Of a stretch of 55,940 nt of DNA, positions 2,375-55,367 are shown piece by piece. The DNA is taken from the NCBI GenBank assembly GCA_000934665.2, contig KZ538652.1:1-55940 (forward strand), read 5' to 3'. The notes beneath the pieces were generated by a model that ran no database searches, had not been told where the DNA came from, and saw only the letters and a list, made by a program, of their open reading frames with translations. The stretch comes from Catajapyx aquilonaris (taxonomy: Eukaryota). Position 1 is the first letter of the stretch; each line of letters begins with the position of its first letter. Position numbers and translations under genes: made by a program.

Positions 2375-3959
2375 CTCATCCTCAGATGACTCGCTCTCAA
2401 GGTCAGACACCGCTACGTCTTCACTGCTGTCTCCACAGTCAGAGTCGCTGCCCCTTCCAGAGTGACTTTCCCTCATTTCCGACATCTTCTGTCGAGCCTT
2501 CAGTTTCGATTGCCTTGTTCCACGCTGCACTTCCACCTGAGCAAAAACCTACACCATTATTATTTTCCTCTTTGCGTAAATAAAGTACTACGCCCACAAA
2601 CTGTGGTATCTTTACAATGGCCACAGGAAAATTCTGACCGGATCAGTCACGCCATGTGCTGACCCCCTGTAACTCCCACACAATCGGTTACTCCCTCTCC
2701 ACTCTCCTTGACCAACACAGATTTTGTACCCAGCACTAGGCGGAGTCTGAAGATGACCGACACAGCATGGTTTATCATGCAGCTGCTGTACCTTTTGCAT
2801 GTCATTCCCAGGTTTAGAGGCAGCTTCTGGTGTCCCTGGATTCTTTCCAGCACCCTCGTTGTCCTGGATCTCGACCTGCAGATGAGAAGGTCACAAGAGT
2901 TGATGAGAGGTGCTGCAGAAGATGATCACAAATGCAAGACCATTTGTGTACTTGCATAATACATTTGTAGAAAACCACAATTCAAAATAATATTGTCATA
3001 GTCTTCATCCCTCCAACACATTCCGTCATGCAAGGTTTCAACAGAGATTTCTGCAGTGCTTAGTAATTTTTCCCTCCTTTATTCCCAAATTTTCAGTGTT
3101 CATTACAATGATGAATCGGCTCATGCCTCAGGGTCCTGCATATACGAGATGCTGAATGCACATGCTCTGCATCATGCAGCTGTTTTACTACACCATATTA
3201 AGTTACTTGTAGCAGCTGAAAGTCACGGCTGCCCTTCATTGTCTGAGAGAGAGGCCCAAATATGGCTTCCAAAAGAGAGACAACTGCAGGACTATCAACA
3301 CAAATGCAATGAGAACCGATGAGAACCCACTGAAACTCTACCCACATGAAAGTCTCCTAGGATTGAACTTGGAAGGCTGAGATGCTAACCACTCCGTCTC
3401 TGAAGCCCATGTGGTTGCCATAGTTGAAGCACTTACAGCCCAATCAATAATATTAACCAAGAATATTAGTCACACACATCATCTAGTTTCAGTTGCATTT
3501 TGTTTTTTTGTTTTAGTTGCTTTTGTGGAGCAGTATCTGTACAAAAAAGTTGCATGAGGAATGCAGCAGAGAAAATGGGATTTGGCATGACAAATTCTGC
3601 ATTAGCAAAATGAGTGGATCAGGGGCACCAGTTCAGACATGCCAACGTACACAGTATGTATGAAAGGCAAAGTTGGTCTGCTTGCCAATTTGATAGCAAA
3701 GGGTGTTTCGTCTATCTTGGAAGATTGACACTTTTCCCCCTCTCAGCTGGACAAGCAGGGTACAACTTTCACATTGACTATGTCCAGGGGCAATCAGAAC
3801 CCTTACCTCAACCCTGTTTACCTGAACTGGGGCTGTGTCTGGCCTCGTCTCCCCCTGGTCTAGTGAAGTGGATTCCGCTTCTGGCAGTCCCACATCGCCT
3901 GGGAGGGTTTCGCCACCATGGCCATCCTCCTTCTCATGCCCGGGCGGCAACTCATCTCC
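2375..3959 (-). CDS. Acidic/linker exon cassettes of the modular TF gene family (exons 3959-3822, 2875-2792, 2536-2375)
   Basis: Each has AG/GT boundaries, a length divisible by 3 (138, 84, 162 nt) and an open frame (GDELPPGHEK..., VEIQDNEGAG..., VEVQRGTRQ...SSEDE). Paralogous to exons at 6773-6636, 55367-55284 and 55021-54860. The transcript they belong to is unclear. Confidence 0.6.
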
Positions 3960-4186
3960 CTGAAACCAGACGTTCTGTCACAGATGCGCCTCCGTTTGCA
4001 CCACAGGAATGAGAAACTGAAACCAACCTTGAGTCCACCACTACCAGGCATCAGGTGCTCTTGGTCAGGTCTGGACTGGTGCTTCTCTGCCCTGCATTTG
4101 CCACCACCAGTCTTGCCCAAGTGTGGATCCCCATACGCTGCTTTAGGAAGGGTTTTTTTCACTCAATATTTTTTAAAGTACACAAG

Positions 4187-4768
4187 TCACACTGGGGTGT
4201 ATGTCTTACCTGCATTTTCCTTGTGGACTCTACTTTTGTGTGCATATAAGCGTTCATGGGTTGTATATTTCTTGTCACATAATTTGCAGCTATACAGACG
4301 TTGTCCAATGTGGGTTCGCTCGTGTGCTGCTAACAGGTCGCTAGCATGGAACTGTTTCCAGCAAGTGGCACATTGGTGTGGCTTCTCACTGTGCCTCCTC
4401 ACGTGATATTTCCTCAAACTTTTCGATATAAATTTTTTGGGGCACAAGGGGCACTGGTATTGTTTGTATAAATGTCTGTTGTGCACATTTTTTCTGTGAG
4501 TATACAATGCAGGTTGATTCGAGTATGTCTTGTCACATAAGTTGCAGGCAAAGGGACGCTCTCCAGTGTGAATCCGCTTGTGGGTCTTTAAGAAGCCGGC
4601 CTGGAGGAACCCCTTCCCACAAGTGTCGCATTTGTGAGGCAATCCTGTGTGAGTGCGCCTGTGATTTCTTAGGTATGTTTTGTTTCGGTAATTTCGGGGA
4701 CACAGGTCACACTGATATCTCCTTCCTGCACTTGTTGCATGTCCTGTACTGACCTTGGTCAAACGAGC
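4187..4768 (-). CDS. C2H2 zinc-finger array exon (6 fingers, next finger degenerate)
   Basis: Acceptor ttttccAG at 4769-4770. Fingers include CDLCPRNYRNKTYLRNHRRTH, CDTCGKGFLQAGFLKTHKRIH and a TGERPF linker. The stop at 4187 falls where paralogs continue KTLQCDLC. Confidence 0.8.
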   Translation of the reverse strand, partial: ARLTKVSTGHATSAGRRYQCDLCPRNYRNKTYLRNHRRTHTGLPHKCDTCGKGFLQAGFLKTHKRIHTGERPFACNLCDKTYSNQPALYTHRKNVHNRHLYKQYQCPLCPKKFISKSLRKYHVRRHSEKPHQCATCWKQFHASDLLAAHERTHIGQRLYSCKLCDKKYTTHERLYAHKSRVHKENAGKTYTPV

Positions 4769-5141
4769 CTGGAAAAAAAGAAAAATGAGGAAAAAACCAT
4801 AATGGGTCGACACTATAATCAAATCCCGTAATCCATATTTTTTAAATGCATAATGTCAATTTGGAATGTGCTGTTCCTTACTCATTCGGTGCTTGCTTCA
4901 ACACCAAACAAACAAACCCAGCATCGCATGTCTCATTTTGCCAAATGGTCATGATGACCAAGATTCGGCTAGCAAACCTCCCGGAAAATTCGCCATATAA
5001 AATATTTCACCTTTTAAGTCTTAGAATTAAAGGTGGCCAAACTCTTCTCGATGTGACACTGTCAAGCTAATGCCACAGCTCAGAAGGACTCGAAATGAGT
5101 GCTAGACAAGTTGCTCTCTGACTTGTGAGTGAATGACTTAC

Positions 5142-5378
5142 ACTTGCTGCATCTTGATTGGTTGTTCTGGGGAACTTCTGGAGTAGGTGGGGTCTCATGA
5201 CCTTGACCCAAACCTGCAGCCTTATCAGGGGGATGTTAAACTCTTCTGCTGTTTCCCTCAACTTGCCACGACATTTGGGCTCACCAAACTCATAGGCATC
5301 GAGCACTTTGTTCTTGAATTCATGGGAGTGACGGACACGTGTTGCCTTTCTTCGGGTTGCAGACCTGACTGAGGTTGA
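5142..5378 (-). CDS. Brinker-type DNA-binding domain exon
   Basis: 237-nt phase-0 exon: HSHEFKNKVLDAYEFGEPKCRGKLRETAEEFNIPLIRLQVWVK, resembling the Brinker DBD pattern (FKLQVLESY...CKGNQRATARKYNIHRRQIQKW). GTAAGT donor. Confidence 0.75.
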
Positions 5379-5703
5379 CTGCTTTGGGGGTGGAAAAAAA
5401 CTGCTTAGATAATACCAAGGTCATGCCCAGGTTAATGTGAATTTCCCCAAATTTAGTTTTGGCATGGCTGTTTAACAGTGTGAGGCAAAATACAAGGATT
5501 TGGGTCATTTTTCAACCTCATGCAATTGACCCCAGTTATAGCCCCAACTGCAGCCACGCTCCACTGATGACACCCCACATCAATATTAACATATTATGCA
5601 AGTGATATGCCTTACAGGAGGTACCCATTTTACACTGATTTAATAGGTTCTTCCACTGCATGAAGCAGTTTAATCACCATTAGTCCTTATATACGTTACG
5701 TAC

Positions 5704-6773
5704 CTCATCCTCAGAATTAGACACCACAGCGTCTTCAGAGTCGCCTCCAATGTCAGAGTCACTGCCTCTTCCTGCATGACGTTCCCTCATTTCCGTCATC
5801 CTCTGTCGAGCCTTCACTTTTGATTTCCTCGGACCAGACCGCACTTCCACCTGAGCGAAAAGAAGACAATTTGTTCCCTCTTTGACTGAATGCCTGCAAA
5901 CCATCCCATGCGTAAAATGACACCAATGACCTTAACTCTGGACCTGTCTCCCCCCAGCACATTCCAAAGATGATAGACAATATGGGGCCAGGCACAAAAT
6001 GAGTGATAGTACCTCAAACAGTTCCCAAATGACCTAATGCCTTCTGGTTACTGGGACACAAATAAACAAGCAGAATTTCCTCCGTGCTCAGTCCATGCTT
6101 CATACCTCATCCTCAGACGACTTGCTCTCGGTGCTGCCTCCCACAACGTCCCTCGTTTCCCTCTCCTCCTGCTGAGCCTCCACTTCTGAGACTCTTGGGC
6201 CAATGTCCACTTCCACCTAAATGAAAAGTCCGTTTATTAATCCACCTCCGATGAAGAAAACCGCCAGATGTTCCCACCACAAGCCCCCCAAGAATACATC
6301 ATTCCCATTCTCACATTATGCTCTCCATTCCCGGTTTGAGCATTTGTCATTCACACAGTGTAGGACAACACCATGTTGGAAAACAATAATTCTGAGCTGA
6401 GATGTTGGCCACTTCATTATTTTGAACTGTACAATCGCGTTAATAAACTTTGTCGCATCCTTGGTGAAGGTGCAACCGGTTGCACCTCCACCAAAAAAAA
6501 AAAAGGTTAGCAAAGGGTGTTTTGTCTATCTTGGAAGACTGACACTTTCCCCCCTCTCAGCTGGACAAGCAGAGTACAACTTTCACATTGACCATGTCCA
6601 GGGGCAATCAGAACCCTTACCTCAACCCTGTTTACCTGAACTGGGGCTGTGTCTGGCCTCGTCTCCCCCAGGTCTAGTGAAGTGGGTTCCGCTTCTGGCA
6701 GTCCCACATCGCCTGGGAGGGTTTCCCCACCATGGTCGTCCTCCTCCTCACGCCTGGGCGGCAACTCATCTCC
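5704..6773 (-). CDS. Acidic exon cassettes (6773-6636, 6216-6106, 5850-5704)
   Basis: AG/GT-bounded, 138/111/147 nt, open. The VEVDIGPR...SSEDE and VEVRSGPRKSKVK...SEDE exons duplicate 30906-30796 and 30518-30357. Confidence 0.6.
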
Positions 6774-6985
6774 CTGAAACCAGACGTTCTGTCACCCAGA
6801 TGCGCCTCCATTTGCACCACAGGAATGGGAAACTGAAACCAACCTTGATTCCACCACTACCAGGCATCAGGTGCTCTTGGTCAGGTCTGGACTGGTGCTT
6901 CTCTGCCCTGCATTTGCCACCACCAGTCTCGCCCAAGTGCGGATCCCCATACGCTGCTTTAGGAAGGGTTTTCATTCAATATTTT

Positions 6986-9900
6986 TTAAAGTACACAAGT
7001 CACACTGGGGTATGTCTTACCTGCCCTTTTCCTGTGGACTCTCATTTTGTGTGCATATAAGCTTTCATGGGTTGTATATTTCTTGTCACATAATTTGCAG
7101 CTATACAGACGTTGTCCCATGTGGGTTCGCTCGTGTGCTGCTAACAGGTCACTACCATGGATCTGCTTCCAGCAAGTGGCTGGACTTGTCGCATGTCCTG
7201 AATTGACCTCGGCCAGACAAGTCTGAAAGAGACCACCACCACAATTGGTCAATGAGGTCAACGTTATAGTCAAATCCTGCAACCCCTATCCTTGCACAAA
7301 ATGTCAATCCAATATGGCATGTGCTGTTCCCTATGATGTATTCGGTGCTTCATTCAACAATAAACAAACAAATTCAGTGTCTATGGGTAATAACTGGTTC
7401 TAAGCGGGGAGGCATGGTGGCCGAGTTGGCAACATCTCGGCTTACTGAGTGAAAGGTCCCGAGTCCGATGCCCGCCTGGGAGTTCCCTCAGGACCTGCCT
7501 CAGGACCGGATCTCTGACCCAGCCTTGGAGGCCTCCGGCAACCTAACCTCCTGGGAGACTGCACATTCCGACATTGCACATGAACCCGTGTCTCCTCCCC
7601 TAAAAATCCCCACCCTTACCCCCCATGTCCTTTCTTCCCTGAGTTTGAAGAAAAACACGAAAAAATGAATGGAAAATATGGTGGTGTTCCACCCCCCAAA
7701 GAGGGCCTCTGGCCCTAGCATGGGGTAATACAAGAAAAAAGGGGGGAGGGTCTAAGCCCCCACCTGCAGGTGTAGTGAAACCCCGAGATAAGCCAAACCC
7801 TGCATAATAAGGTCCTGGCTCAAGGCCTAACGGGGAACGTGATGTGGCAGAGAAGTAGATCTTACACATCGTACACCACAATTATTCACCATCACCTTCA
7901 ATGCCAACCTTTGACTTGGCATGGGGAACAGTAATGCCGTCACTGGTGCTGGAGTTGAGGCTCACAGGACTCCTCCATTGCCACAATCCATTCTATTTGG
8001 GGCACAATATACAGGGTGAACCTCCCGAGTTTCAAAGAGCAGTAAAAAATGGAAATGCAGAGGTATTTAAGGTTTTTGCTGTTTAAACAGTTTGGAGACT
8101 CAACAAGTGAGCCAAAAACTTTTCCGTCAAGAGTTGTAGACATTTAAAATACACTAAAAATCCCCCATAAAAATAAAACCAATGTTATATAACTGAAATA
8201 GTTTCTGCTGCATCCAAGGTGAAAGGCATTGAAAAGTTTCCCTCACGGCTGGTCTGTCTTAAATTATTTTGAATCATCCGAGATACAACTAAAGATTAAT
8301 ACCAGAAGCAGTGACGTGTATCTCTTGCCTCCTGGTAAACTGGCCTCGCAGTCAGCAGGTACATCACTATTGTTGCAATTGCCTTTGGTGTGTACATCAT
8401 CGTGCCCCTCCACTTCCTCCATCTGCTGTGCATTCTCAATGGCTGGATTTTCACTTTCGGGCATCCCCACCTGCAAAAGTGAACGTTTTAGTTTAGACAC
8501 TTACATTTTTGAATGAACTGGTCTTACCACAGAAGGAGACTCCATATTTGCTTCATTGGGTCCAGACTGGGATGATTTGGATCTCTTCTTCTCCCTACTT
8601 GGAAAAATCCCATTGAACAAGTGAGCTGGGCGGTTTCTGCCGTGCCTCCTGAGATACAAGGAACAAGCGTTGCACAACCGATGGTTCTTCTTATCACGCC
8701 GCCAGTCACACGAGACGGATGTGTTGCAGTTGAAGCAGCTCCGACCCCGATCACCACCCTGCAATCATCACAGAGTGTGTCATTCACACAATGTAGGACA
8801 AGACCATGTTGAAAAACAATCATTCTGAGCAGAGATATTGGCCACTTCCAGGTTTAGTTCCCCGGAGCGCCTCAACAGCAGAAAATTTCTAAATTCAGCA
8901 CCAAGACGACCAAATGATGGAAAAAAATGACACTTCAGGATTTATTATTTCCAAGACTACTAGACGTGATGTTGTCCTTCTCCAGGGGCAATGAGTAGAT
9001 GACCATGTACTCACCATATTAATTTCATACTCTTAGCATGCGTTTAACAATTTCATTGGACAACCTGAAATGTGCCCTTTTCGCACAACAATGGAAATAT
9101 TTGAGTATTTCCATTTTACGCTCTAGGTTAAAACGGTTGCCTCCAAAATGTTCATCATCTCACGGCCGTTCATTTGATATACGTATAATATAATGGGGTC
9201 ACAACAATACATTCTGAGATGGCCAAGCCACCAACTGGGCCGCCTTGTCATAGAATGACCCAGGCTCACCCGGCCACCTTATTTTTTTAAATATCTTGGA
9301 CCCTATTACGAACACAACAATGGAAATGCATACCACTGAAAGGTTATGAGTAGCAGATTACCCACAATAATATTCGTAAAATTCGACTCTGTGCTGGTTG
9401 TCACGTCAAGAGTCACGCAACTTTTATTATATTATATTATATTTATATATTTATATTATATTATATTTATTTATATATTTATATTATATTATATTTATTT
9501 ATATTACTACTATTATATTATATTATATTTATATTACTACTATTATATTATATTTATTTATATTACTACTATTATATTATATTTATTTATATTACTACTA
9601 TTATATTACTATTTATTTTTCTGTGCTGGTTGTCACGTCAAGAGTCACGCAACTTTTATTATATTATATTATATTTATATAACAATATATTATATTTTTA
9701 TATTTATATTATATTATATTTATTTATATTACTACTATTATATTACTATTTATATTTGTAATATTGGACAAAAGGGCAAAAGAGGCGCATCAGGCCTCCT
9801 TATTTACTGTATTTGATATCTCGGACCCTAAGACGCGGGGGAAAATGAAACTTGCACCCCTGAAGGGATATGACCTGCCAAAATGACACGTAATTTTAAT

Positions 9901-12900
9901 CGGAGAATCTTTTGGAGGTTGTCTGCGGGTTCGGTGTTACCTTGCAGAATTTAAAGCCCCATTTTGCATGTATCCAGGACGCATAATTATAGGTTCTTCC
10001 ACTACACGAAGCAGTTGTTGTGTATTGGGTGGCTGGTAATAAGGTCACCGGCTGATGAACATACTTACAGGTGTATTGCAAGTACAGTAAAACTTCTATA
10101 AGTCGAATCTCCATGGGACCGGAAAAAAACTTCGAGTTATATAAGATTCGAGTTAGAGAAGTTCGGAATTTTTTAAAGCACATAACGCTATAATAAAGCC
10201 TACCTTCATAGCCAGTGCTGAAAGGTGTTCATAACTTAAAAATAACTATCACTATCACGCTTACAATGTTCCTCGTTGTTTCGGTGTAAAAGAAATCTCT
10301 GTTACGGACATTGGCCTACTCTTAGATTCAAGGATTCAATTGTCACAATCGAGTCAAACACTTCTTTGGGTACGTCTGGTAGACAGAGATCAGAAAATTG
10401 AGCCTTTCTGTACATGCTGTGGCCTACTCTCGACCCTTCGGCTGGGAAATTAGAAAATTTTCCTTACTCGCCAACATGAACTTGGACTTAGGGAGACTGA
10501 AAATGCATTGATATCCCATCGTAGAATCATCTTGGGTGATTACGAGGGGTGGAAGCCGCCTAAAAAAACCTGCACAGATGTCGCAATAGGATGACGTCCC
10601 CTTCTCGTGCATAACATATGATGTGGTACATGGCTCTCTTAAAGGGACACTCCACTCAAAATACAAGTTGGGCTGTAAAAATCGGGCAAAAAATCCAGAC
10701 TCCGAGGGTATAAGCAGTTTTTCTGAGAGATGAACGGTAAGGCCAGGGCGAAAGCTGGAAGTGTGTCGTTCGAAAACCGCGCTCAATCGGGCCCGGTGCA
10801 GGTGGCGACGCCACCCCAAGGGTGACGTTGGATAGTAGCGCCGCCCTTCCCAACGGGGACATGGATAAGTTGCCTGCGGGCATGGGGATCCGTGGGGATC
10901 TGGTTGGATCTGGTTGTGTCCGAAGCCAACTTCCCCTAGCGCCCGTTGGGAAGGGTGGCGCTACTATCCAACGTCGCCTAACTTGGCCAGGTGGCCAGGC
11001 GGCGCCACCCCTTCTTCTTCTTCTTCTTCTTCTTCAGCCCCATCTTGTGCATGAATGGCGAGAGAAACCAATGTCTGTCTGTCTGTCTGTCTATCTGTCT
11101 GTCTGTCCATTTTATACCAAATGGTGTTTCAGGGACACCTCTCTACGATCTCGTATCTTGGGAGATTGACACTTTTCCCCTCCTAAGCTGGACAAGTCAA
11201 GTACAATTTTCACATTAACTGCACGTACATTCTTGTTAACAGGAGTGTTGGAGCAGAGCCGTGAAGCGGCAGATGTGGAGAGCTATACTCTCAGTGGGGT
11301 TAAGAGGGCCAACTCCTAAAAAGATGGAACTCTCTGTACCAACAAGGAAGCTGGGAAGGAGAGCTAATAATGACCCCACACCACAAGCAGAGAAGCAAAC
11401 TGGCTTGGGCAACCTGACTTACTCGTTGGATAATGAGGAGGGGAGAGATGGCCAGAGCTGCACGTGTAACAGCCATTGACCTAAGGTCTGGGCCAGAACC
11501 AATGCCATCCTCATCAACTGAAGACTCACACCGTGAAGTATTGTACCTAGTTTAATGTTGTGCGATGTAGAGGACATTTATACTGGATGGAAAATCTTTC
11601 TGAAATGCAGCGATTCCCCTACGTTTAGGTTTTAAGTTCATTAGAGCCAAAGCAACTCTGGCTATCTGGCTATGAGGAGATGAAAGGTGGGACAGACGGA
11701 GACAGAAATAAAAAAGAAAAGAGGAAAGACTGGTATCTCTCTTAGTTCACCATTCACGTGCCACACAGGAGAGGAAATTAGTGATAGTTTGATTCAACTT
11801 ACACCTGCTGTACTGCATGTCACTGCATCTGGCGTTGGGAGTTTGGATGACAATGGAGGTTGAGTTGTTCCTTCTGACGATCTTGGCTGCTGCGAGAAAA
11901 ATGGACAAAAGATTATAAAATTACAATGCCATTGTCATGCATTTTCTTCTTGACTACAATGCACCAAGTATTTTAAAATGTTCAATTTAACTCTCTGAAG
12001 CAAGAGTATTTCCCTTACACTTGCAAGGAATGGCCTGGCAGGTGGGATTCAAACAGGGTTTTTAAAAACTTGATATGCTAACATGTCATTAGCGTTTTAC
12101 TTTGCATTACATTTCCATACGCCTGAGTTCCCATTAGCTTTCAAATCCAACTTCTCCGATTTGCCAAAAGCTTGTAGGAGCAATTCGAATGGAAAACAAC
12201 AAAAATAAACGTGGCAGCTTAATCCCAACACGTGTTGTATTGCCCACCTCGTCTACACATCCAGCTTGCTTCAATAATTTGGTAATAAGTGGTGGTGGGA
12301 TCCCATCAAAGTGACACAAATTGACAATGTCTATGTGAGCATACAAAACTTATTGGAAGGGGATTCCCTTTTGTGCCCACCAAACTGTTTCAGATGTGAT
12401 ACTGTCAGCTAATTCTCAGAAGTACTCAAAATCAGTGACTCTTGCGTGAATGACTCACATTTTCTGGACTGCTAGTCGAGGCATCTTGCATTGTTGGTCT
12501 GGGGGCCTTTTTGAGTAGGTGTGGTCGTAGGGACTTGACCCAACCCTGCATAGTCCTACGGTTCACATCAAACACTCGAGCAGTTTCCTTCAAATTGCCA
12601 CGACACTTGGGCTCACCAAACTCATAGGCATCTAGCACTCTGTTCTTGAAATCCAGGGAGCGACAGACAGGTGGTGCCACAATTCTGGTCGTGGGAATTG
12701 TTGTGGTTGCCTGGTATGGGCCGGGTGAAAGAAATGCCACTTAGATAATACCGTCAAGGTCATGCACTCATTACAGGCTTAAATGTGATTTGGCATAAAT
12801 CGGGTACTTCCTGTACTGGCAAAGAGTGTTTTCAATAGTTCATTGCATGTGTGCTGAAAGGTAGACCCTGAGTGAACCTATCTGTTGCTATTGGAAAATA

Positions 12901-15900
12901 GAATTTCAGGAGCCACTTCAAAGTGGGCAGTAAACATTACCGGTTTGGCTGGATATTCTGGGATGCCAAGCTGTTCTTCAATAAATAAATGCATGACATA
13001 ATTAAAATTGGTATATGTTTACATTAACTTTTAGGCCCTTGCCACACTAGGCGGAATTTCCAGCGCGGTCCACTCAAAAAAATCAAACACACGGAAGTAA
13101 AGGGGATTCTGTCAGGTTGAGACACACACGGCGAGCACCAGCGGAAGACACAGCGGAAAAAATCCACTCAGTTTTCCGTCGGGAACAATAACCCGACTGC
13201 AATACATTGATTCTACCGGGGGAATGACACACTACCGACGGAAAAAGCGGGTTCACTGGCATGGAAACCAGGGGGATTGGTGGCTGAAAGGGCCGCAAGC
13301 CGGCAGCATGGTTGACGGAAATTCCATGTGAAAAAAAGTTGCAAAGTCAAACCGCAATGGAAATTCCATCGCGGAGATTCAGCCTCGTGTGGCAAGGGCC
13401 TTAGTGGTTTCTGTAGGTCACTCATGGCCTAACTGAATTTTGGGAAACATTACCTAAAACAGTTTTATTCATATTTATTTCTAAAATGAGTTATGCATAC
13501 CTCATCCTCAGACAACTCACTCTCATGGTCAGACACCACTAAGTCTTCACTGCTGTCTTCCAAGTCAGAGGCGCTGCCCCTTCCAGAGTGACGTTCCCTC
13601 ATTTCTGTCATCCTCTGTCGAGCCTTCAGCTTTGATTTCCTTGGTCCAGAGCGCACTTCCACCTGAGCAAAAAGGAAGACTATTTTTGCCACTTTTGCCT
13701 GGAAACGTTTCATGCCTGCTTGAAAAGGCTACACCATAACTCTGGACCTGTCACCCCCACACCAATCCCTTACTCCCTTTGCACAGACCGAAAATGATAT
13801 GGGGCCAGGCACAAAATGAGTGATAGTACCTCAAACAGTTCCCAAGTGACCTAATGCCTTCTGGTTACTGGGAAACGAATAAACAAGCTCAGAATGTCCT
13901 CCATGCTCAGTCCATGCTTCATACCTCATCCTCAGACGACTTGCTCTCAGTGCTGCCTCCCACAACGTCCCTCGTTTCCATCTCCTCCTGCTGAGCCTCC
14001 ACTTCTGAGACTCTTGGGCCAATGTCCACTTCCACCTAAATGAAAAGTCAGTGTATTAATCCACCTCCGGATGAAGAAAACCGCCAGATGTTCCCACCAC
14101 AAGCCCCCCCAAGAATCCATCATTCCCATGCTCACATTATGCTCTCCATTCCCGGTTTGAGGGACATCGTCAGGCATCTCAGGATCTGTCCCAACTCTCG
14201 TCCCTTCTTGCTCCGTCTCCGCCTAGAGAAGGGAGAGACCATTAAAAATGAAGAAGTCAAAGCTTGTTTCTTTGTCCATTGACCTAATCCATTTTATGAC
14301 TATTTAATACTCATTTCATACCCATTGGGTAAAGGCAACGGATTTTTTTTGTGTGTGTTTGTTTGTCCAGGTTCGGTTCCCATGGGAACGGACCATGGAG
14401 AGTATGGGTTCCACTGCTGGTTATGTTGTATACCAGCAGCGGAACCTGCACTTTGCATGACTTGTACAGTGCTGGACACCTTAGCCGTCTCTAAATGCTT
14501 TTTTTTTTCCCCGTCGGCGACGGCGCGCGTTACCTGGCAACCCCTGCCGGCGGGCCCATTCAAACATCAGCACATGGAGAGTGCTTAGTGTCCTTTCCAT
14601 TGTTGCCACTGTTTACAAATAGAGTGAGTGACGTATGAGGACAATCCAACGACGGGTCTCTTCCTGCTTACACATCAGTAGCAAGGGATACGCAGGGAAA
14701 AACAGGAATTATGATGGTAGAAGCAAGCCATTTTGGAGAAATGTTCCCTGCTGGACTCAAAGAAAGGTTTTCGTCCACAGCACACAAAATCCCTGAGGAG
14801 GGAGTGTCAACTATTAAGATCCGGGGTGTGCTAATTGAACGTGCGTCAACTGACGGATTCTTTCAGTTTTTGCATCTTTTCCGCATAATTCGACCACCGC
14901 TAAGACGAATGGAGACCATGCCCCGTATGTTAGAACCGCGTCTGTCTCGTAATTTGCCCCCGTAAGATGTCATATTTCAAAATGGCCTCCCCACATTTAT
15001 ACGAGTACGTGTCATTCGTGTCATATTCGCGCCAGCAAGAGGAACAGGACTACTATCGGATTTTTTAATACTGGCCCGTGTGTTTGACTCTAAAGAACTC
15101 CAAGGAAAGTGGTCCAAAAAAATAACATTATACATCGTTAAAAAGCTTGTTTAAATCTACGTAACATACATGCAAGTTGGTTACCTATCTTCATTGTGTA
15201 ATTTTTAATCTCAAGAAGAACACGGAAGAGTGTCATTTTTTGACTAGGTGCCAAAGTTACGCCTCAAAGTGAATTTTTAGGTGGTCCAAAAGAGCAGGCA
15301 AAATTAATAGCCCAAAAACTTGGTGTGACAAAATTTAGTGCTTCAAATGATGGAAAGTTTCCGCAACAGGCGCAGAATTTCCTGGAAAACAGTGCATGGT
15401 GATGCAAGTGTCGTGGATGTCAAAGAAGTAGAAAATTGGACGGAGAAGTGGGAACCGTTTGTTCAGGGTATTTCAAGGGGGACATTTTCAACGGCAACGA
15501 AAGGGCAATTTTTTAGATGTGCTGTACCCTAGGCAGTACAAACTATTCCACAAAAATGCTACTGTATGGACTCTGTTTGCATCGTATTGAGGTAATTTGC
15601 TTATTTTTGTACTACTATTTTCCTCTCTTTCTCACTGGAAAAAATATATTAGTAACGTCCTTGATCTGAATATAGCGGAATATGGAAACCTGTCCAGTAG
15701 AGAACAATTTTGGGGTGACCCCATGTGATTCCGCAATACACAAGTTTCACTGTACATGTTATGTTAAAATGCAATAGTGACTCCAGTGGGAAAGGCCCGT
15801 TTTCATTTCATGCTACGATTTATTAATGCAACAAAAATATGAAACACATCCGACGGGAAACAATGTGGGCGCATGTGTGTTAAGTGCGGCTCTTACCTGC

Positions 15901-27309: not shown

Positions 27310-27381
<72 letters not shown>

Positions 27382-41577: not shown

Positions 41578-41812
41578 GGTGCGCTGCAAACACGACCTCG
41601 AGGTGTTCAGAAATTTTGGTAAGGGCATGTTTTATTATTTCCACCGGGCGTTATGTGACCTGAATATTAACGTGGCATCACCGGGACATCACGTGGGCAT
41701 GGCAACACCTTGGGTCACAAATGAAATGACCGTTTGTCGCACCGGAACCCGCGTTACAGGTGGAGTAAGAAGGAAATCAGTCTTGGCCCATTCAAATCTG
41801 CCGCGCAAAGAC

Positions 41813-41880: not shown

Positions 41881-41881
<1 letters not shown>

Positions 41882-45012: not shown

Positions 45013-45490
45013 AACAATTAATAATTAATATATTATTAAAAATAAGGATTAGACTTGAAATTCCAAAGGGGGGGGGGGGGGGTCGTGCCCCTCTTCCCTC
45101 CACTCTTGGATCCGACCCTAGATGATTGTCATTGAATAAAACATCATCAAATGATTCATATGATCCATTCCAAGCGCAGTATCAAATTTTTAGCCAAGTT
45201 GGTAAAACATGGCCCAACTTAAAAGGTCGATTGCGGCTAAACGGCACCAAAAACCATTCGACGCGGCATCTAATGCTCTTTAACAATGTTTAGAGTAGAC
45301 ATTTCGGTAGGCTGCATAGTGTAGGAGTTATATGCGAAAAACTACAAAAAAGGGGGAAAACTTCGCGGTTTTTTGACTCCCAACCAACGCTTAAGCAGAA
45401 GTCAGAATCCGTCGCAAACTCACAGGACTCTTATTTGGGACCCCCTAAAGGTATTAAATCGGTATTTAAAAAGGTATTTATCGCAAAGAC

Positions 45491-46408
45491 TTGTGTATCA
45501 AGACAGTTGAATTGCACCCACAACCCACCTTTGTGGCACTTAATGACATAGGCTTATGGGCATATAATCTACCGCATCCAGTGGATATTACTGTCACATG
45601 CTTGAATGCAGAAAGCAGTACCATTGAAACGTTAACTGGAATAGGAAAAATAAATATCAAACCAGGATGTACAGGACTTACCAACAGTATGAGAATAGTA
45701 TCAGGATACCAAGGCCTAACACGAGCAAAATACCCGTTAATACAGTCAATTGTAGTTCCACGAATCTTAAGCATATTAACGCCAGAGGAAAGTAAATGGA
45801 TTGTTGCATTATCTCAAAATCAGTCGTTCATGACAAAGATGTCCAGCAAGTTCACAAAAAATATGGACATGCCAATAGCTATGCAGTCATTGCAAAGTGA
45901 GTTAGATTCCTTACATGAGATTCCAGAAACATTTCAGAGCGTTAATGGAAATAATGATTTCATGTGGCAGTCTTCAATCTCGTATTTCTGGGTGATAGTG
46001 ACTGTGGTCGCAGCAATTGCTATGATCATATGTTGCTTGGTAATGATAAAACGTTTCGATATATGTAACCTCAGCCAAAGGAACAATGCACTTCCGAAAG
46101 TTCCGAAGTTGACGCCGAGTAACCATAAATACGATATTGGGGGCATAACACCACTACCAGCCGAATCTTTGTTTGATACCTCATATAAATTTCAATCCAG
46201 TATAGCCAGAATGACAACCAATGATGATTATGTGGATATGGGCAAACCAAGCACTAGTAACGTACATGTAGTAGACGCTGATTTAATTTTAACGCCATTT
46301 GATCATGTAAAACAATTAGAAGCTAAGGAACCTACACCAGTCATAAATAAATGTAAGAATAAAAAGGACACATTGAAGACTAATGGAGTGGCAGTAATGA
46401 TTAAATAG
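45491..46408 (+). CDS. env: Envelope (baculovirus F-like / errantivirus env) C-terminal part, 5'-truncated
   Basis: FVALNDIGLWAYNLP...ITVTC....TLTGIGKINIKPGC..T pattern of the F-type env ectodomain end, then a TM helix (YFWVIVTVVAAIAMIICCLVMI) and a long cytoplasmic tail. Lies upstream of a PPT and LTR. Confidence 0.7.
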   Translation: MCIKTVELHPQPTFVALNDIGLWAYNLPHPVDITVTCLNAESSTIETLTGIGKINIKPGCTGLTNSMRIVSGYQGLTRAKYPLIQSIVVPRILSILTPEESKWIVALSQNQSFMTKMSSKFTKNMDMPIAMQSLQSELDSLHEIPETFQSVNGNNDFMWQSSISYFWVIVTVVAAIAMIICCLVMIKRFDICNLSQRNNALPKVPKLTPSNHKYDIGGITPLPAESLFDTSYKFQSSIARMTTNDDYVDMGKPSTSNVHVVDADLILTPFDHVKQLEAKEPTPVINKCKNKKDTLKTNGVAVMIK

Positions 46409-46893
46409 TTCACTCATGAAGGTAACGAGAAGAAGTATAGCCATAAATGTGATATGGAGTATATTTAAATAGTAAGAGAATAGTATATAAACAAGTCATT
46501 TATTTCCAAGTATAACTAAACGTATATAGTCACGTAATTAATGATTGTAAAGTTTGGTGATGAGTATAATCACACGATGATAGTAATAACAGTGGAGTGT
46601 TTTATGTTTCACACGCAAAAGAGTTGATGACAGTACAAATGGTCATGAGTGACGATTGAATTCATTTTTTTTAACAGAGTCTCCAAATCCCTCAATATGC
46701 CTAGAGTGAGTCACAATATTATAGATTAAGTCTGCAGCTGTGGCCGACTCTTCACTGTGTATATCCATTGACCGTAGAGGTAATAAGTTTTGTGAATGTT
46801 TATCTTAATGTCAGCTATACCTCGCTTGTGGAATCAATGTAAAAAGAAGTGTACTATATAACTACCGGAGGGAGTGTTACCGACCAGTCACAG

Positions 46894-48510
46894 ATGACCA
46901 CCATGGAAGAGAAGCAAGATGTTAGTGCGGAAGAAGAGCTGTCCAAGTTATTGGAATGGAGTAGTGAACACTATATACCGCCAGAAACACAGGTGCAGCT
47001 GTTCGAGGACTCGCATCCAGATGAGTTTTTAGTGGAAACCATGGACGACCTAATACCCATACCTGAACACGTGGCACACCAATACTCTATTACACCCGCC
47101 ACAGAAGCCATTCCAGACCTGTTATCCATTAGCAGTCCAGATACCGAAACACAGTATAATCCATCCCTACCTGTAGCACCTTCCCAGAGGGAGGAGGAAA
47201 GAAACAAGGAACACTATTCCAATGAGCAGTACCCTCAGAGAGAGGTATACACAGACGCAAGTACCAGTGTCATCGCAAGTACCAGTGACATCGCCAGCAC
47301 CAGTGTCATCGCAAGTACCAGTGACATCGCCAGCACCAGTGTCATCGCAAGTACCAGTACATATATCAGTGCCATTGCAAGTACTAGCGGCTGTGCCAGC
47401 ACCTGCGCTAGAATCCATAGTGCCATACCACGGACAAATGTCGCAAGATTGTCTTCGCAAGTGCTCAGGAAGATACCTTACTATACTACTGATTGTAATG
47501 TCACACCTAACCTCCCTGGATTCCAGTATCCATATCCTTTAGCCCGGTATACACTTGAAAAGCACATACAATGCCATCAGATTACGGTGCCTAATCACGG
47601 CATCATTCCGGTAAAGCCTGGCCGACACACATCAACGGTCATCGCCATTTGTAAACAAATGCTGGAGTTATGTCCAGAAGGGGTCTATCTGGCCACCCTC
47701 AATAGTCATATAAAAGCTGAACAAAAGGTGGAGGAGGAATGTCCATTGGCAGGATGTCATGGGAAGATAGGAAAAACAGGAATTAGTTGCCACAAGCATT
47801 TGTTACTGCATTTGAGTATCGCTACGGTGTCATGTCCCAGTTGTGGCTTAAGCTTTGAAGATTTTAGTTCAAGGTTAAGCCACATGTATACTGCACACCT
47901 TTCATGTTTGAAGGAATGTTTGGAAGCAATAGGCTTGAAGTTGTTAATGGATAGCACCATAAGAAACAGGGGAATACAAACAGAAACCGATCATACAGGG
48001 ATGGAAACAGAAACAGAAGTCGTGTACGGAAAGCCTCTTAAAGGCCCAAAAATGATACATGCAAGTTACCTACAATTACCTGCATGGGAATGGACAAACT
48101 CACAAGAAGCAGTGCAGTTAACAGTAGGGAATAAAGAACCCGCATGGATAGATTTAAAGGCAAAAGATACTCCTGCAGTCCTAGACTTAATAACTATGTT
48201 GAAAACAGTACCAAGCGGAATGGAGATAATGCCAAGGCAAAGAACTAAGCTGTACAAGGGGAGAGCAGAGAAGTGTCCAATGATAGACTGTGCTTGTTCA
48301 CTAAGCCAGCATATAAGTAGGCCACCCCACTTGGTCAGTCATTTGAACACAAATTGTATGTATTGCCCTATTTGTTGCCGGTCGTGGTACAGCATCCTGG
48401 CCTGGATAAATCATTTAGTACACACTCATACGGAGCACATGAACACGGTATTAAAACAAACTGGCTATGAACATGTTTTGCATTATGGAAGGACACAAGT
48501 GATTATGTAA
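46894..48510 (+). CDS. Retroelement accessory ORF: acidic N-terminus, 6-aa IASTS(V/D) repeats, two duplicated pairs of atypical C2H2 fingers
   Basis: Intronless open frame of 538 codons from ATG 46894 (Kozak-like ACCATGG at 46903). Fingers: CPLAGC..HLLLH, CPSC..HMYTAH, CPMIDC..HLVSH, CPIC..HLVHTH. Confidence 0.8.
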   Translation: MTTMEEKQDVSAEEELSKLLEWSSEHYIPPETQVQLFEDSHPDEFLVETMDDLIPIPEHVAHQYSITPATEAIPDLLSISSPDTETQYNPSLPVAPSQREEERNKEHYSNEQYPQREVYTDASTSVIASTSDIASTSVIASTSDIASTSVIASTSTYISAIASTSGCASTCARIHSAIPRTNVARLSSQVLRKIPYYTTDCNVTPNLPGFQYPYPLARYTLEKHIQCHQITVPNHGIIPVKPGRHTSTVIAICKQMLELCPEGVYLATLNSHIKAEQKVEEECPLAGCHGKIGKTGISCHKHLLLHLSIATVSCPSCGLSFEDFSSRLSHMYTAHLSCLKECLEAIGLKLLMDSTIRNRGIQTETDHTGMETETEVVYGKPLKGPKMIHASYLQLPAWEWTNSQEAVQLTVGNKEPAWIDLKAKDTPAVLDLITMLKTVPSGMEIMPRQRTKLYKGRAEKCPMIDCACSLSQHISRPPHLVSHLNTNCMYCPICCRSWYSILAWINHLVHTHTEHMNTVLKQTGYEHVLHYGRTQVIM

Positions 48511-48727
48511 ATGAGTTGAGGCATTTGGAGATGGAGAAGTTATTTTGTAGATATTGCTGAAACTGTCATGATTGTTTTATGAAACATGTTTATGTGAATG
48601 TAACTCTGATAAGGTTATTGTGTATGTTGAACATTTATTCATATGGTCTTATACCATCTTGTATGGATAACGTAGTAGGATAACGGTTAAGAAGCAACTG
48701 GAAATTTTCTCCTTTGTGGGTGGATAT

Positions 48728-50809: not shown

Positions 50810-51922
50810 TCAATGCAGTGCCTTCATGTGGCTCTGGAGGTGGTGCTTCATCAGAAAGTCCTTCTTGCACACGGTGCACACAAAGGGCCTCTCCCCAATG
50901 TGGAAGCGCATGTGCTGGTCCACGTGGTGCTTCATAGTAAAGCCCTTCCCACACACGAGACAGGAAAAGGGCTTCTCCCCAGTGTGAGTGCGCATGTGAA
51001 TCGTTAGGTGGGTTTTCACTGCAAATTTTTTGGGACACAAGTCGCACTGGAGTGTCTTACCTCCACCCTCCGTGTGAACTCTAATTTTGTGTGAATGTAA
51101 GGCTGTAGGGTTGGCATATGTCTTGTCACATAATTTGCAGGCATAGGGACGTTCTGAAGTGTGAGATCGCTCGTGTAATGCTAATTGGTGCATATAATGG
51201 AACTGCTTCCCGCAAGTGGCACATTGGTTTGGCTTCTCCTTACTGTGTGTCTTCAGGTGTCTTTTCAAGGAAACTATACATGCAAATTTTTTGGGACACG
51301 AGGGGCACTGTTTGGCTGGTTGCTTATTGTGTTTGCGTATTTTGTGAGTACTTAATCCACCTCGTGTTCTATATGTCTTGTCACATAAGTTGCATGCAAA
51401 GGCATGTTCTCCACTGTGCGTCCGCTTGTGGGCCAATAATTCACTATGCCATTGATATCTCTTCTCACAAATGTCACATTTGTGCGGCAAATACTGTGTG
51501 TGAATTCGCAGCCTGTGATATGTGAGGAGCCTTTCACTGCGGTAATATCCTTGACACAGGTGACATTGATATTTCCTTCCTGCTCCCTCCCCGTGGATTT
51601 GATAATTGTGGCGCTCCAGGCTACGTAGCGATGCAACCTTCCTGTCACATATGGTGCAGGTCAACTGAAGCGGTTTCTTGTGGGCCTTCTTTGGGCGGGT
51701 AATATTGATGGGATCATGCTCCCTCTTCCCAGTGCATTCCTGTGGCCTCTCTGCTGCATGGGTTGCAGCGCCATTAGCTTCTTTCCCTGTCAGTCCTGAC
51801 CGTGAATCAGAGGTGGTTCTGCAACGGGAACCCAACCCGCTGCCTGATAACTCCATGCTTCCATCCCTGTCTTCTGATGCTGGACTTGTCGCATGTCCTG
51901 AATTGACCTTGGTCAATAAAGT
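50810..51922 (-). CDS. Terminal exon of copy C, 10 C2H2 fingers
   Basis: Paralog of 19386-18241 with the same acceptor; open for 371 codons including TGA. Confidence 0.92.
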   Translation of the reverse strand, partial: TLLTKVNSGHATSPASEDRDGSMELSGSGLGSRCRTTSDSRSGLTGKEANGAATHAAERPQECTGKREHDPINITRPKKAHKKPLQLTCTICDRKVASLRSLERHNYQIHGEGAGRKYQCHLCQGYYRSERLLTYHRLRIHTQYLPHKCDICEKRYQWHSELLAHKRTHSGEHAFACNLCDKTYRTRGGLSTHKIRKHNKQPAKQCPSCPKKFACIVSLKRHLKTHSKEKPNQCATCGKQFHYMHQLALHERSHTSERPYACKLCDKTYANPTALHSHKIRVHTEGGGKTLQCDLCPKKFAVKTHLTIHMRTHTGEKPFSCLVCGKGFTMKHHVDQHMRFHIGERPFVCTVCKKDFLMKHHLQSHMKALH

Positions 51923-53361
51923 CTGAAAGAGACCCCCACAGTAGGTCAATGAGGTCAACGTTACATAGTAAAATCCTGCAACCCCTATCCTTGCACAAAA
52001 TGTCAATCCAATATGGCATGTGCTGTTCCCTATGATGTATTCGGTGCTTCATTCAATAATAAACAAACAAATTCAGTGTCTATGGGTAATAACTGGTTCT
52101 AAGCGGGGAGGCATGGTGGCCGAGTTGGCAACATCTCGGCTTACTGAGTGAAAGGTCCCGGGTTCCATCCCCGCCTGGAGTTCCCTTTCGCCTGCGTCAG
52201 GACCGGGTCTCTGACCCACGCCTTGGAGGCCTCCGGCAACCTAACCTCCTGGGAGACTGCACATTCCGACATTGCACATGAACCCGTGTCTCCTCCCCTA
52301 AAAATCCCCACCCTTACCCCCCATGTTCTTTCTTCCCTGCACGGAGTTTGAAGAAAAACACGAAAAAGTGAATGGAAAATATGGTGGTGTTCCACCCCCC
52401 AAAGAGGGCCTCTGGCCCTAGCACGGGGTAATACAAAAAAAAAATGGTCTAAGCCCCCACCTGCAGGTGTACCTTACCCCGAGATAAACCAAACCCTGCA
52501 CAATAAGGTCCTGGCTCAAGGCCTAATGGGGAACGTGATGTGGCAGAGAAGTAGATCTTACACATCGTACACCACAATTATTCACCATCACCTTCAATGC
52601 CAACCTTTGACTTGGCATGGGGAACAGTAATGCCGTCACTGGTGCTGGAGTTGAGGCTCACAGGACTGGAGCCACGTCTCCTCCATTGCCACAGTCCATT
52701 ATATTTGGGGCACAATATACAGGGTGTCCGCAATGAACCTCCCTAATTTCAAAGAGCAGTAAAAAATACACATGCAGAGGTTTTTGAGGTTTTTGTTGTT
52801 TAAACGGTCAGGAGACTCTACAAGTTTCATACTGAAATCTTGGGATGGTCTATGGGATGGGGTGGTGCTCCTGTGGGGCTGTTGGAAGACACAAACATAA
52901 CATCTACAGAGGGAAAAACACAGGCGGTGTGGTGGTTAGCTGAGCTCAAGTCCATTACAGAAGTGCTGGACATGCTTAAAATTTCGCCTTTCCACAACTA
53001 CAAGACAGAGTAGGGTAAGATATTCTAACCACCACACCACCTGTGTTTTTCCCTCCGTAGATGCTATGTTTCCAAAAGTTCAGTATGAAACTTGTTGAGT
53101 CTCCAGACCGTTTAAACAACAAAAACCTTAAATACCTCTGCATTTCTATTTTTTCCCTGCCTCCCTTTTCATCAACATGTCCCTTAGACTCGAAGTCCAG
53201 ATGTGTTACAAAGTTGTTTTGGCGTCCCGTAATTGAAAACCACAATGTGGGGAAAGTAGAGAGGGGACAGATTGAAGCAGAAGAGGGAGACGGCCACCAC
53301 CATAACGCTACTGACTGCAGTGGTATTAATCGGGAAAGCAGGCACAGTAAATCGGCTTTAA

Positions 53362-54745
53362 CCCTTTGATGGCGACGGACATCATATGATGTCCGAGCTT
53401 ACATTGCTGGAGGGCCTACGGACATCATACGATGTCCTGAGACTTGCCCTGCCAACTTGGGTCATTTTTCAACTCAAAAAATTTCAACCTCACCGATTTT
53501 CTTCAAATTCGGCGCATAGGTAGCCCACCCCAAGGGATGAAAAACGCACCTATAGTTCCCTGCTCGAAATGACCCTGTGACCCAATTTTGAGGGGGGCAG
53601 AGGTCAAATCATAAAATTTCGACCTCACCAATTTTCTTCAAATTCGGTCCATTGGTAGCCCACCCCAAGGGATGAAAAACCACCTATAATGACCTGATCA
53701 AAATGACCCTGTGACCCGATTTTGAAGGGGGCAGAGGTCAAATCATAAAATTTCGACCTCACCTATTTTTCTGAAATTCGGTCCATTGGCAGCTCACTCC
53801 AAGGGATGACAAACCCACCTATAGTTCCCTGCTCGACATGACCCTGTGACCCATATTGGAGGGGGACATATGTCAATGCACCGAATTTCAAGAAAATCGG
53901 TGAGTAGGGCTGTGCGATATCCGAAATTGCATATCGACTTTCGATACTCAAAAAATATCGAATCGAAGTCGATATATCGAAAATCGAAAAACCGACATCG
54001 AACAATATCGAAAATATCGCAAAACGACATCGCGATATTCGATACATCGCACATGCCAAGCGTCGGATATCGAAGTTGCGTTATCCGACGCTTGGCATGT
54101 GCGATGTATCGAATATCTCGATGTCGGTTTGCGATATTTTGCGATGTGCGATATTTTGCGATGTCGGTTTTTCGATTTTCGATATATCGACTTCGATGCG
54201 ATATTTTTTAAGTATCGAAAGTCGATATGCAATTTCGGATATCGCCCAGCCCTACCTATCGGTGAGGTCGAAATTTTATGATTTGACCTCTGCCCCCCTC
54301 AAAATTGGGTCACGAGGTCATTTTGATAAGGTAACGCTAGGTGCGTTTTTCATACCTTGGAGTGGGCTACCAATGCACCGAATTTCAAAAAAATCGGTGA
54401 GGTCGAAATGTGACCTCTGCTCTCCTCCATTATGGGTCATAGGGTCATTTCGAGCAGGGAACTATAGGTGCGTTTGTCATCCCTTGGTGTGGGCTATCAA
54501 TGCACCGAATTTCAAGAAAATCGGTGAGGTCGGAATTTTATGATTTGACCTCTGTACCCCTCAAAATTGGGTCACGAGGTCATTTTGATCAGGTAACTAT
54601 AGGTGCGTTTTTCATCCCTTTGGGTGGGCTACCTATGGACCGAATTTGAAGAAAATCGGTGAGGTCGCAAAATTTCCGGAAAAGGGGGAAAAAAAACTCC
54701 GGCCCTGGGGTAATGCAATCCCTCAAAAACTCCGCCATCAAAGGG
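53362..54745. mobile_element. piggyBac-like non-autonomous element with internal ~130-bp repeats in both orientations
   Basis: TTAA TSD (53358-61, 54746-49) and TIRs CCCTTTGATGGCG / CGCCATCAAAGGG. Empty site in the paralog near 2260. Confidence 0.88.
53905..54254. mobile_element. Palindromic hAT-type MITE rich in CGATA motifs, nested in the piggyBac-like element
   Basis: TAGGGCTGTGCGATAT...ATATCGCCCAGCCCTA. Approximate TSD TCGGTGAG, with 4 extra nt on the right. Confidence 0.75.
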
Positions 54746-54859
54746 TTAAAATAATTTTCAGCCCATGTGGAGGCCACTCGTGGCCTCCTGCAGACCGAGA
54801 TTTGAGAACCAACACCTGAAACAGCTTTGATCAGCACCAGTCCTCAAATAAGTACGAAC

Positions 54860-55367
54860 CTCATCCTCAGATGACTCGCTCTCAAGGTCAGAAATCGCTA
54901 TGTCTTCACTGCTGTCTCCAATGTCAGAGTCGCTGCCCCTTCCAGAGTGACTTTCCATCATTTCCGACATCTTCTGTCGAGCCTTCAGTTTGGATTGCCT
55001 TGTTCCACGCTGCACTTCCACCTGAGCAAAAACGTACACCATTATTATTTTCCTCTTTGCGTAAATAAATTATTGCGCCCACAAACTGTTGTATCTTTAC
55101 AATGGGCACAGGAAAATTCAGACCCTATCAGTCACGCCATGTGCTGCCCCCCTGTCACTCCCACACACAATCGGTTACTCCCTCTCCACTCTCCTTGTCC
55201 AATACAGATTTTGTACCCAGCACTAGGCGGAGTCTGAAGATGATCCACACGGGATGGTTTAGTTTATCATGCAGCTGCTGTACCTTTTGCGCGCCATTCC
55301 CCTGTTTCGAGGCAGCTTCTGGTGTCCCTGGATTCCTTCCAGCACCCTCGTTGACCTGGATCTCCAC
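54860..55367 (-). CDS. Upstream exons of copy C (55367-55284, 55021-54860)
   Basis: AG/GT-bounded exons of 84 and 162 nt (VEIQVNEGAG..., VEVQRGTRQ...SSEDE). The gene continues beyond the window. Confidence 0.65.

Follow-up and report, generated by a model that had tools for sequence, protein, structure and literature searches.

Exon cassettes and tandem copies

We analyzed a 55,940-nucleotide (nt) stretch of the Catajapyx aquilonaris genome (assembly GCA_000934665.2, contig KZ538652.1, positions 1–55,940 of the forward strand), hereafter the window, which carries a tandem array of predicted genes and partial gene units built from three kinds of DNA-binding module: a Brinker-type helix-turn-helix (HTH; Brk exons), a GATA finger and arrays of C2H2 zinc fingers (ZF exons). 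The minus strand carries all 36 delimited exons in a single orientation, comprising 30 predicted internal exon instances, 2 ATG exons and 4 terminal C2H2 exons. For every one of the internal exons, the prediction gives a length divisible by three (3n), an open frame 0 and phase 0-0 boundaries. This agrees with an initial annotation of the window, which had reported more than 30 exons of such length beginning on codon boundaries, a figure that counts paralogous copies of 10 exon types. The lengths it gave were likewise recovered with AG/GT boundaries (81, 84, 87, 111, 138, 147/162, 168, 231, 240 or 237, 252 and 384 nt), the 240-nt Brk exon becoming 237 nt through an alternative AG at 5378 (NAGNAG). 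Exon families were defined by block alignments, an all-against-all blastp of minus-strand open reading frames (ORFs) being too noisy because young duplicates match in all frames. The families are:

ex1a, ATG exon with one C2H2-like finger: 276 or 273 nt, 2 copies
ex1b, acidic: 81 nt, 2 copies
F5, acidic: 87 nt, 3 copies
F3, acidic: 111 nt, 3 copies
F2, acidic: 162 nt, one of 147 nt, 7 copies
F4, acidic: 84 nt, 2 copies
F0, acidic candidate with a weak acceptor: 138 nt, 2 copies
Brk, Brinker-type HTH: 240, 252 or 384 nt, 5 copies
GATA finger: 231 nt, 3 copies
F7, partner of the GATA exon: 168 nt, 3 copies
Terminal ZF (1, 6 or 10 C2H2 fingers): 237–1146 nt, 4 copies

These exons fall into copies that differ in exon order and number, and the predicted exon table reproduces the order initially described. 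Copy B (33709 to 18241) is predicted to comprise 16 exons and ~1318 codons in the order ex1a-ex1b-F5-F3-F2-F2-Brk-GATA-F7-F2-Brk'-F5-Brk''-GATA-F7-ZF10. Copy A (16317 to 4187) reads ex1a-ex1b-F5-F3-F2-Brk-GATA-F7-ZF(truncated), followed by unit A2 (6773 to 4187, inside A) with F0-F3-F2-Brk-ZF6. Unit D (3959 to beyond the left window edge) begins F0-F4-F2, and unit C (55367 to 50810) consists of F4-F2-ZF10. An ATG exon is present in each of copies A and B, which also share ~470 nt of conserved sequence ahead of the start codon. The individual exons, with minus-strand location shown as (-), are as follows.

Copy B
33437–33709 (-), ATG exon ex1a, one C2H2-like finger; ATG at 33706; donor CAG/GTCAGT, phase 0
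33292–33372 (-), ex1b, acidic, 81 nt, after a 64-nt intron
31006–31092 (-), F5, acidic, 87 nt
30796–30906 (-), F3, acidic, 111 nt
30357–30518 (-), F2, acidic, 162 nt
29936–30097 (-), second F2, acidic, 162 nt
29271–29522 (-), Brinker-type HTH exon, 252 nt (Pfam)
27909–28139 (-), GATA-finger exon, 231 nt (Pfam)
27684–27851 (-), F7, 168 nt, after a 57-nt intron
26909–27070 (-), third F2, 162 nt, C/D type; F4 partner replaced by an (ATT)n run
25880–26263 (-), divergent Brk-like HTH exon, 384 nt (Pfam)
24525–24611 (-), second F5, 87 nt
24093–24344 (-), third Brk, 252 nt, top BrkDBD score of the five (34.5 bits)
21808–22038 (-), second GATA, 231 nt (Pfam)
21583–21750 (-), second F7, 168 nt
18241–19386 (-), terminal C2H2 exon, 10 fingers; stop 18241–18243

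Copy A
16042–16317 (-), ATG exon ex1a, 276 nt
15897–15977 (-), ex1b, 81 nt
14136–14222 (-), F5, 87 nt
13925–14035 (-), F3, 111 nt
13501–13662 (-), F2, 162 nt
12459–12710 (-), Brk, 252 nt (Pfam)
8528–8758 (-), GATA, 231 nt (Pfam GATA, 40.9 bits)
8303–8470 (-), F7, 168 nt
6986–7222 (-), truncated chimeric terminal C2H2 exon, 1 intact finger; B-type 5' part and A-type 3' part meeting at 7179/7180

Unit A2
6636–6773 (-), F0 candidate acidic exon, 138 nt, weak acceptor, 212 nt behind the truncated ZF stop
6106–6216 (-), F3, 111 nt
5704–5850 (-), F2, 147 nt, 15-nt in-frame deletion
5142–5381 (-), Brk, 240 nt (237 from the AG at 5378; Pfam)
4187–4768 (-), terminal C2H2 exon, 6 fingers; acceptor score 12.0; stop 4187–4189

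Unit D
3822–3959 (-), F0 candidate, 138 nt, 227 nt behind the ZF(A) stop
2792–2875 (-), F4, 84 nt
2375–2536 (-), F2, 162 nt; the unit continues past the left window end

Unit C
55284–55367 (-), F4, 84 nt
54860–55021 (-), F2, 162 nt
50810–51922 (-), terminal C2H2 exon, 10 fingers

Exon-plus-intron blocks are duplicated at 70–95% identity, in differing orders and numbers. Self-blastn recovered every duplicated block named in the initial annotation, pairing 8116–8848 with 27495–28232 (89.0% identity), 8141–8848 with 21419–22128 (88.9%) and 5661–6340 with 30314–31031 (91.2%), as well as 2054–2261 with 53155–53359 (92.8%) and 2260–3452 with 54746–55937 (91.7%), introns included. The last two blocks are separated by a 1.4-kb insertion in the right-hand copy, which lies in the F2-ZF intron of unit C and has no counterpart in the corresponding part of unit D; most of it consists of a 135-nt tandem repeat in two mutually inverted arrays (53469–53876 and 54258–54667). 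Older matches (70–79% identity) are confined to exons of the Brk, acidic and ZF types, and in the block alignments the AG and GT dinucleotides occupy the same columns across copies.

A Pfam scan of stop-free stretches identified the three kinds of DNA-binding domain (BrkDBD, GATA and C2H2 arrays), in agreement with the labels first given to these exons. BrkDBD (PF09607) scored 34.5 bits at 23925–24371, 26.1 at 12432–12740, 22.6 at 29244–29564 and 20.1 at 5067–5420, so that two of the five Brk exons reach the gathering score of 23.4 bits and two lie below it; the fifth (25868–26302) matches only HTH_Tnp_IS630, a transposase-type HTH. All three GATA exons have the C-X2-C-X17-C-X2-C spacing and one of the three reaches the PF00320 threshold of 26.8 bits (40.9 bits at 8501–8764; 18.3 and 21.4 bits at 21565–22044 and 27666–28145); the atlas neighbours of the GATA exon are plain GATA clusters. 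C2H2 arrays were found on the stop-free stretches 4187–4855, 6986–7285, 18241–19449 and 50810–52048, whose four ZF exons hold 6, 1, 10 and 10 units of the form C-X2-C-X12-H-X3-5-H. The three full arrays score 78.7–112.3 bits for zf-C2H2 (cut-off 25.2), and the truncated exon falls just below at 24.2.

A phmmer search with the Brk exon retrieved 82 relatives at E ≤ 0.001 among 1.84 billion representatives, the closest at E 1.8e-18 and 45% identity. Names were available for 12 of the 18 relatives looked up, all of them insect brk or “Brinker DNA-binding domain” proteins. At least one BrkDBD stretch passing on its own occurs in 75 of the 82, and 71 of these 75 have 2–3 such stretches; a GATA or C2H2 domain was found in none of the 82 (23 scanned at E ≤ 1e-3, 59 at ≤ 1e-5). 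The proteins predicted here depart from the canonical Brinker architecture of BrkDBD repeats only by adding GATA and C2H2 domains, a combination that seems to be undescribed among the retrieved relatives.

Splice phase and coding constraint

Frame 0 is the sole open frame in 15 of the 30 internal exons, and the frames of the Brk, GATA and ZF exons, each of which begins on a codon boundary, are fixed by domain homology. Splice sites were also ranked blind to frame, by scoring every AG and GT permitted by the open frame around each domain core with a generic metazoan consensus matrix that was not trained on this species. The top-ranked acceptor was phase 0 in 27 of 27 copies and the top-ranked donor in 20 of 23; of the three remaining donors, two (26865 and 54816, at weak F2 sites) were near ties and the third (8505) has no counterpart in the other copies. 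On the minus strand, 27 of 86 candidates from a generic exon scan had 3n length and an open frame 0, versus 3 of 39 on the plus strand (Fisher P 0.003). At the 5' end, the best ATG-exon donor (15897 / 33292), when read in the frame of ex1a, has phase 1. Removing a 64-nt intron (16041–15978) makes this donor phase 0 and yields the 81-nt ex1b; if the intron is retained, the following exons are out of frame, frame 2 of F5 being closed.

The C2H2 exon at 4768, which the initial annotation had left as its unresolved case, has the strongest acceptor (score 12.0, phase 0), is open to the stop at 4187 and looks terminal. A strong donor-like CAG/GTAAGA (score 7.1, phase 1) lies at 4210 and again at 7021 on the minus strand, 23–35 nt before the stops of the A-type ZF exons; if such sites were used, the A-type ZF exons would be the sole non-3n exons. 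The intron between GATA and F7 (8471–8527, 21751–21807 and 27852–27908, minus strand) is 57 nt long and thus itself 3n. No in-frame stop interrupts it in the two B copies, where its retention would keep the ORF; in copy A it holds a stop.

The statistical weight of the phase pattern is that of one all-phase-0 gene and not of 30 events, because the 30 exons are pseudo-replicates of 10 types, about 8 of which are independent: F2 and F3 are homologous (14 of 36 residues identical, E 4e-6), and no alignment was found between F4 and F5. The independent event is one ancestral gene with ~7–9 introns, all in phase 0. In human genes, 46–53% of exons start in phase 0 and 23–36% are (0,0), according to Table 2 of PMC3632108. 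With these human frequencies, the chance of an all-phase-0 gene is roughly 0.001–0.01; such a gene is uncommon, yet many are expected per genome. Genes of symmetric, often disordered exons that multiply via internal tandem duplication are an established pattern (PMC3632108).

Across 13 non-overlapping exon pairs with 253 differences between copies, no stop codon was observed versus 9.7 expected from random placement of the same number of substitutions (joint P ~6e-5; P 0.009 for the pair of 1.1-kb ZF exons of B and C alone). Over 18 block pairs, with F0 counted as non-exon, 8 of 11 indels in exons are in frame versus 28 of 107 outside exons (Fisher P 0.003), and indel density is 11 per 4932 aligned columns in exons versus 107 per 10802 outside (Fisher P 2e-8), both P values being optimistic as block pairs overlap. 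Two of the three out-of-frame exon indels form a compensating 5+5 pair in ex1a. The ratio of nonsynonymous to synonymous substitution rates (dN/dS) is mostly 0.4–0.9, and amino-acid constraint on the predicted proteins is weak. Between the 10-finger arrays of B and C, DNA-contact positions differ at 14 of 40 sites versus 34 of 176 other finger positions (P 0.037); non-finger positions of these exons differ at 20 of 150. Comparison of the predicted exons shows that selection preserves open frames as the amino acids change rapidly, and the pairing of a guarded frame with fast-changing sequence fits the profile of young, fast-evolving DNA-binding genes.

Joints, repeats and neighbouring elements

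The truncated ZF exon is a chimera: 7179–7400 shares 98.6% identity with B, and 6916–7180 shares 92.6% with the 3' end of the A-type exon. Its two parts meet in frame at 7179/7180, with 2 nt of microhomology, and one finger is left intact. A second patchwork, at 6280–6415, places 71 nt from the intron that precedes the GATA exon directly beside the last 62 nt of the F5 block; it removes the F5 acceptor and leaves an F5 remnant at 6280–6340. We infer that at least two joints are illegitimate patchwork junctions and not clean unequal crossovers. The same patchwork creates, at 6315–6350 on the minus strand, an ATG in frame with the F5 donor (36 nt from ATG to donor, phase 0), possibly a newly made start exon for unit A2.

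Simple repeats also occur within the copies, with an (ATT)n run at ~27320–27400 where the F4 exon of copy B would be expected, and a 29-nt AT-rich minisatellite at 9425–9618 in the Brk-GATA intron of copy A. The 34–49 kb stretch between the copies is rich in transposons and contains a MULE, a reverse transcriptase fragment of a long interspersed nuclear element (LINE), an envelope-like ORF and N gaps. ORFs for a MULE / ZSWIM-type transposase lie at 37080–38788 (-) and 41227–41622 (+) (Pfam MULE, E 1.9e-7) and are interrupted by two N gaps; within this region 38292–38627 pairs with 41241–41576 as a 99% identical inverted copy. Further right, a 312-amino-acid (aa) ORF at 45470–46408 (+) matches the baculovirus F / envelope family (E 7e-8), and a 555-aa ORF at 46843–48510 (+), to which no family was assigned, holds an 18/36-nt coding tandem repeat at 47256–47362. 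Together the two look like part of an endogenous envelope-bearing retroelement. Adjoining the third Brk exon of copy B are ORFs (23473–24099, minus strand; 23719–23928, plus strand) with motifs that look like those of mariner-like transposases; they had no Pfam match at E ≤ 0.01. Capture of exons by transposons (Pack-MULE or Helitron-like) was considered as the main cause of the array, a MULE being present in the window, and was rejected given the single orientation and gene-like order of the 36 exons.

Origin of the array and comparison with known systems

We consider that the array is probably a tandem family of rapidly evolving genes that combine Brinker-HTH, GATA and C2H2 modules. Its all-phase-0 ancestry would have made the duplication, loss and reordering of exon blocks frame-neutral. 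The ancestor would already have had phase-0 introns only, and a tandem array of paralogous, lineage-specific transcription-factor genes would have grown from it by local segmental and exon-block duplication and deletion. Because the ancestral introns were all phase 0, no gain or loss of a block would have broken the frame, and the family could have diversified its set of DNA-binding modules. Phase symmetry would then be a permissive property inherited from ~8 ancestral exon types and not a dedicated mechanism; the locus is an instance of textbook-style exon duplication, with no new mechanism. The initial annotation had gone further in proposing a combinatorial generator of DNA-binding proteins. 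Because every boundary is phase 0, the gain, loss, reordering or skipping of a cassette keeps the frame, and the proposal stands as evolutionary logic, gain, loss and reordering being seen and the frames open; its support is confined to that sense.

Several observations weigh against this reading. The exon boundaries are predictions from ORFs, paralogue alignments and the generic splice matrix, and in 15 of the 30 internal exons more than one frame is open, so that phase there follows only from neighbouring exons. Some splice sites score poorly, including the donors of F2 (GAG/GTTCGT, 0.2) and F7 (-1.5 to 1.3) and the acceptor of F0 (0.4). A search upstream of units A2, C and D produced no convincing start exon: the candidates for C and D were all out of phase and lay within a tRNA-like repeat, and for A2 the phase-0 ATG candidates were weak (donor scores 1.9–2.5) and out of frame with F0. 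The gene model also lacks outside support. No homologue of the GATA+F7 ORF was found among longer proteins, nor of the N-terminal 150–155 residues of the ZF exon among near-length and longer proteins, and no homologue with a Brk+GATA+C2H2 architecture was found. Finally, exons are no better conserved between copies than the sequence around them (91.2% identity versus 92.2% for non-exon positions), and dN/dS is ≥ 1 for F7 and for some recent F2 and ZF pairs. Some copies may be dead, because exon identity is close to intron identity and several dN/dS values are at least 1.

The same near-equality of exon and intron identity, with dN/dS near or above 1 in several recent pairs, would be expected if the array were largely a graveyard with just one or two working copies, its internal repeats, truncated ZF exon and 5'-less units being by-products of local duplication that are in decay and still open only through youth. 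The single intact finger of the chimeric ZF exon, the acceptor-less F5 remnant at 6280–6340, the loss of F4 to the (ATT)n run in copy B and the sub-threshold GATA scores of the B copies (18.3 and 21.4 versus 26.8) also suit such decay. We nevertheless regard it as rather improbable, given the absence of stops where 9.7 are expected, long B and C ZF exons included, the in-frame bias of exon indels, which are 4–5 times rarer than those outside exons, and the old, divergent Brk copies (dS ~1) that retain their ORF, AG and GT in phase 0. Less probable still is an assembly artefact, in which the mosaic would come from mis-joined reads of a dispersed or polymorphic gene family. N gaps in the window, which appear as runs of X in ORFs near 37.1 and 38.7 kb, and the abrupt joints at 7179/7180 and 6280–6415 could be read in this way; however, the copies differ by 5–30%, far beyond collapsed or duplicated haplotypes, the gaps sit in the transposon-rich 34–49 kb stretch outside the gene copies, and 36 of 36 exons share an orientation and consistent order.

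An alternative is a single complex locus whose ZF exons would be successive alternative last exons, in the manner of lola or mod(mdg4); the skipping of one of them would lead to splicing through F0 into whichever 5'-less unit follows (A1 to A2 to D). The proteins made from one promoter would then vary in their finger arrays and in how many Brk and GATA modules they carry, always in frame. An ATG exon is absent from units A2, D and C; A2 and D start 212–227 nt behind a ZF stop with an acceptor-bearing, methionine-less candidate exon (F0), and with all donors and acceptors in phase 0 any such join is in frame. No AATAAA or ATTAAA occurs within ~0.4 kb of the four ZF stops, nor within 0.7–1.1 kb of the stops at 4187 and 6986, and alternative 3' ZF exons have a precedent in the mod(mdg4)/lola literature. 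We hold this to be unlikely, since the F0 acceptor is weak and both F0 copies stem from one recent duplication, copies A and B have their own ATG exons and conserved upstream sequence, as separate genes would, and the 30 ORFs scanned showed neither BTB nor any other shared 5' dimerisation domain. Equally doubtful is the related possibility that the array makes up one or two large transcription units, any C2H2 exon of which could serve as the last exon, with in-frame skipping open to all Brk, GATA and acidic cassettes. If true, a single promoter would give rise to a graded family of multi-domain DNA-binding proteins, making this a lola-like diversity locus without BTB that draws on three unrelated DNA-binding folds in a combination unseen among the 82 Brinker relatives.

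Returning to the tandem gene family that we favour, the locus would, if the gene models hold, capture with unusual clarity the duplication and shuffling of exons under way, with cassette introns still alignable, joints readable to the base and cassettes that are whole DNA-binding domains of three folds. It would illustrate how a gene with phase-0 introns throughout can vary its domains in number and order while the frame is preserved, and is a concrete locus for asking whether evolutionary modularity is reused in RNA through alternative last exons and cassette skipping.

The array shares several features with the modular genes of symmetric exons described in PMC3632108. All of its cassettes are symmetric, with one phase common to successive exons; many exons are short, acidic and of low complexity, and neighbouring exons are homologous (F2 and F3), with copy numbers that vary between paralogues. 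It differs from those genes in that the cassettes include three folded DNA-binding modules (Brk HTH, GATA and the entry to the C2H2 array) and not linkers only, and in that reshuffling has taken place between young tandem copies whose introns can still be aligned.

Tandem clusters of fast-evolving C2H2 genes are known as KRAB-ZNF genes in vertebrates and ZAD-ZNF genes in insects. As in those clusters, we find local tandem duplication, a whole finger array in one large exon, finger numbers that vary (1, 6, 10 and 10) and weak overall constraint with extra change at DNA-contact positions. Unlike them, the window yielded no KRAB or ZAD domain in the Pfam scan of the ORFs, and the N-terminal part consists of a variable string of Brk, GATA and acidic cassettes.

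In Drosophila lola and mod(mdg4), common 5' exons are joined to one of many alternative 3' exons. The array resembles these loci in that several ZF-bearing 3' units, which look like alternatives, stand in a row on one strand, some without a start exon. It differs in that no BTB match was found among the 30 chosen ORFs of at least 60 aa scanned with Pfam, and in that an ATG exon belongs to each of at least two full copies. The affinity to insect Brinker (brk) lies in the HTH exons, two of the five of which reach the Pfam BrkDBD gathering score, and in their nearest relatives, which are insect brk proteins; whereas 2–3 BrkDBD stretches are common in those relatives, each Brk module here is a single cassette set beside other DNA-binding domains.

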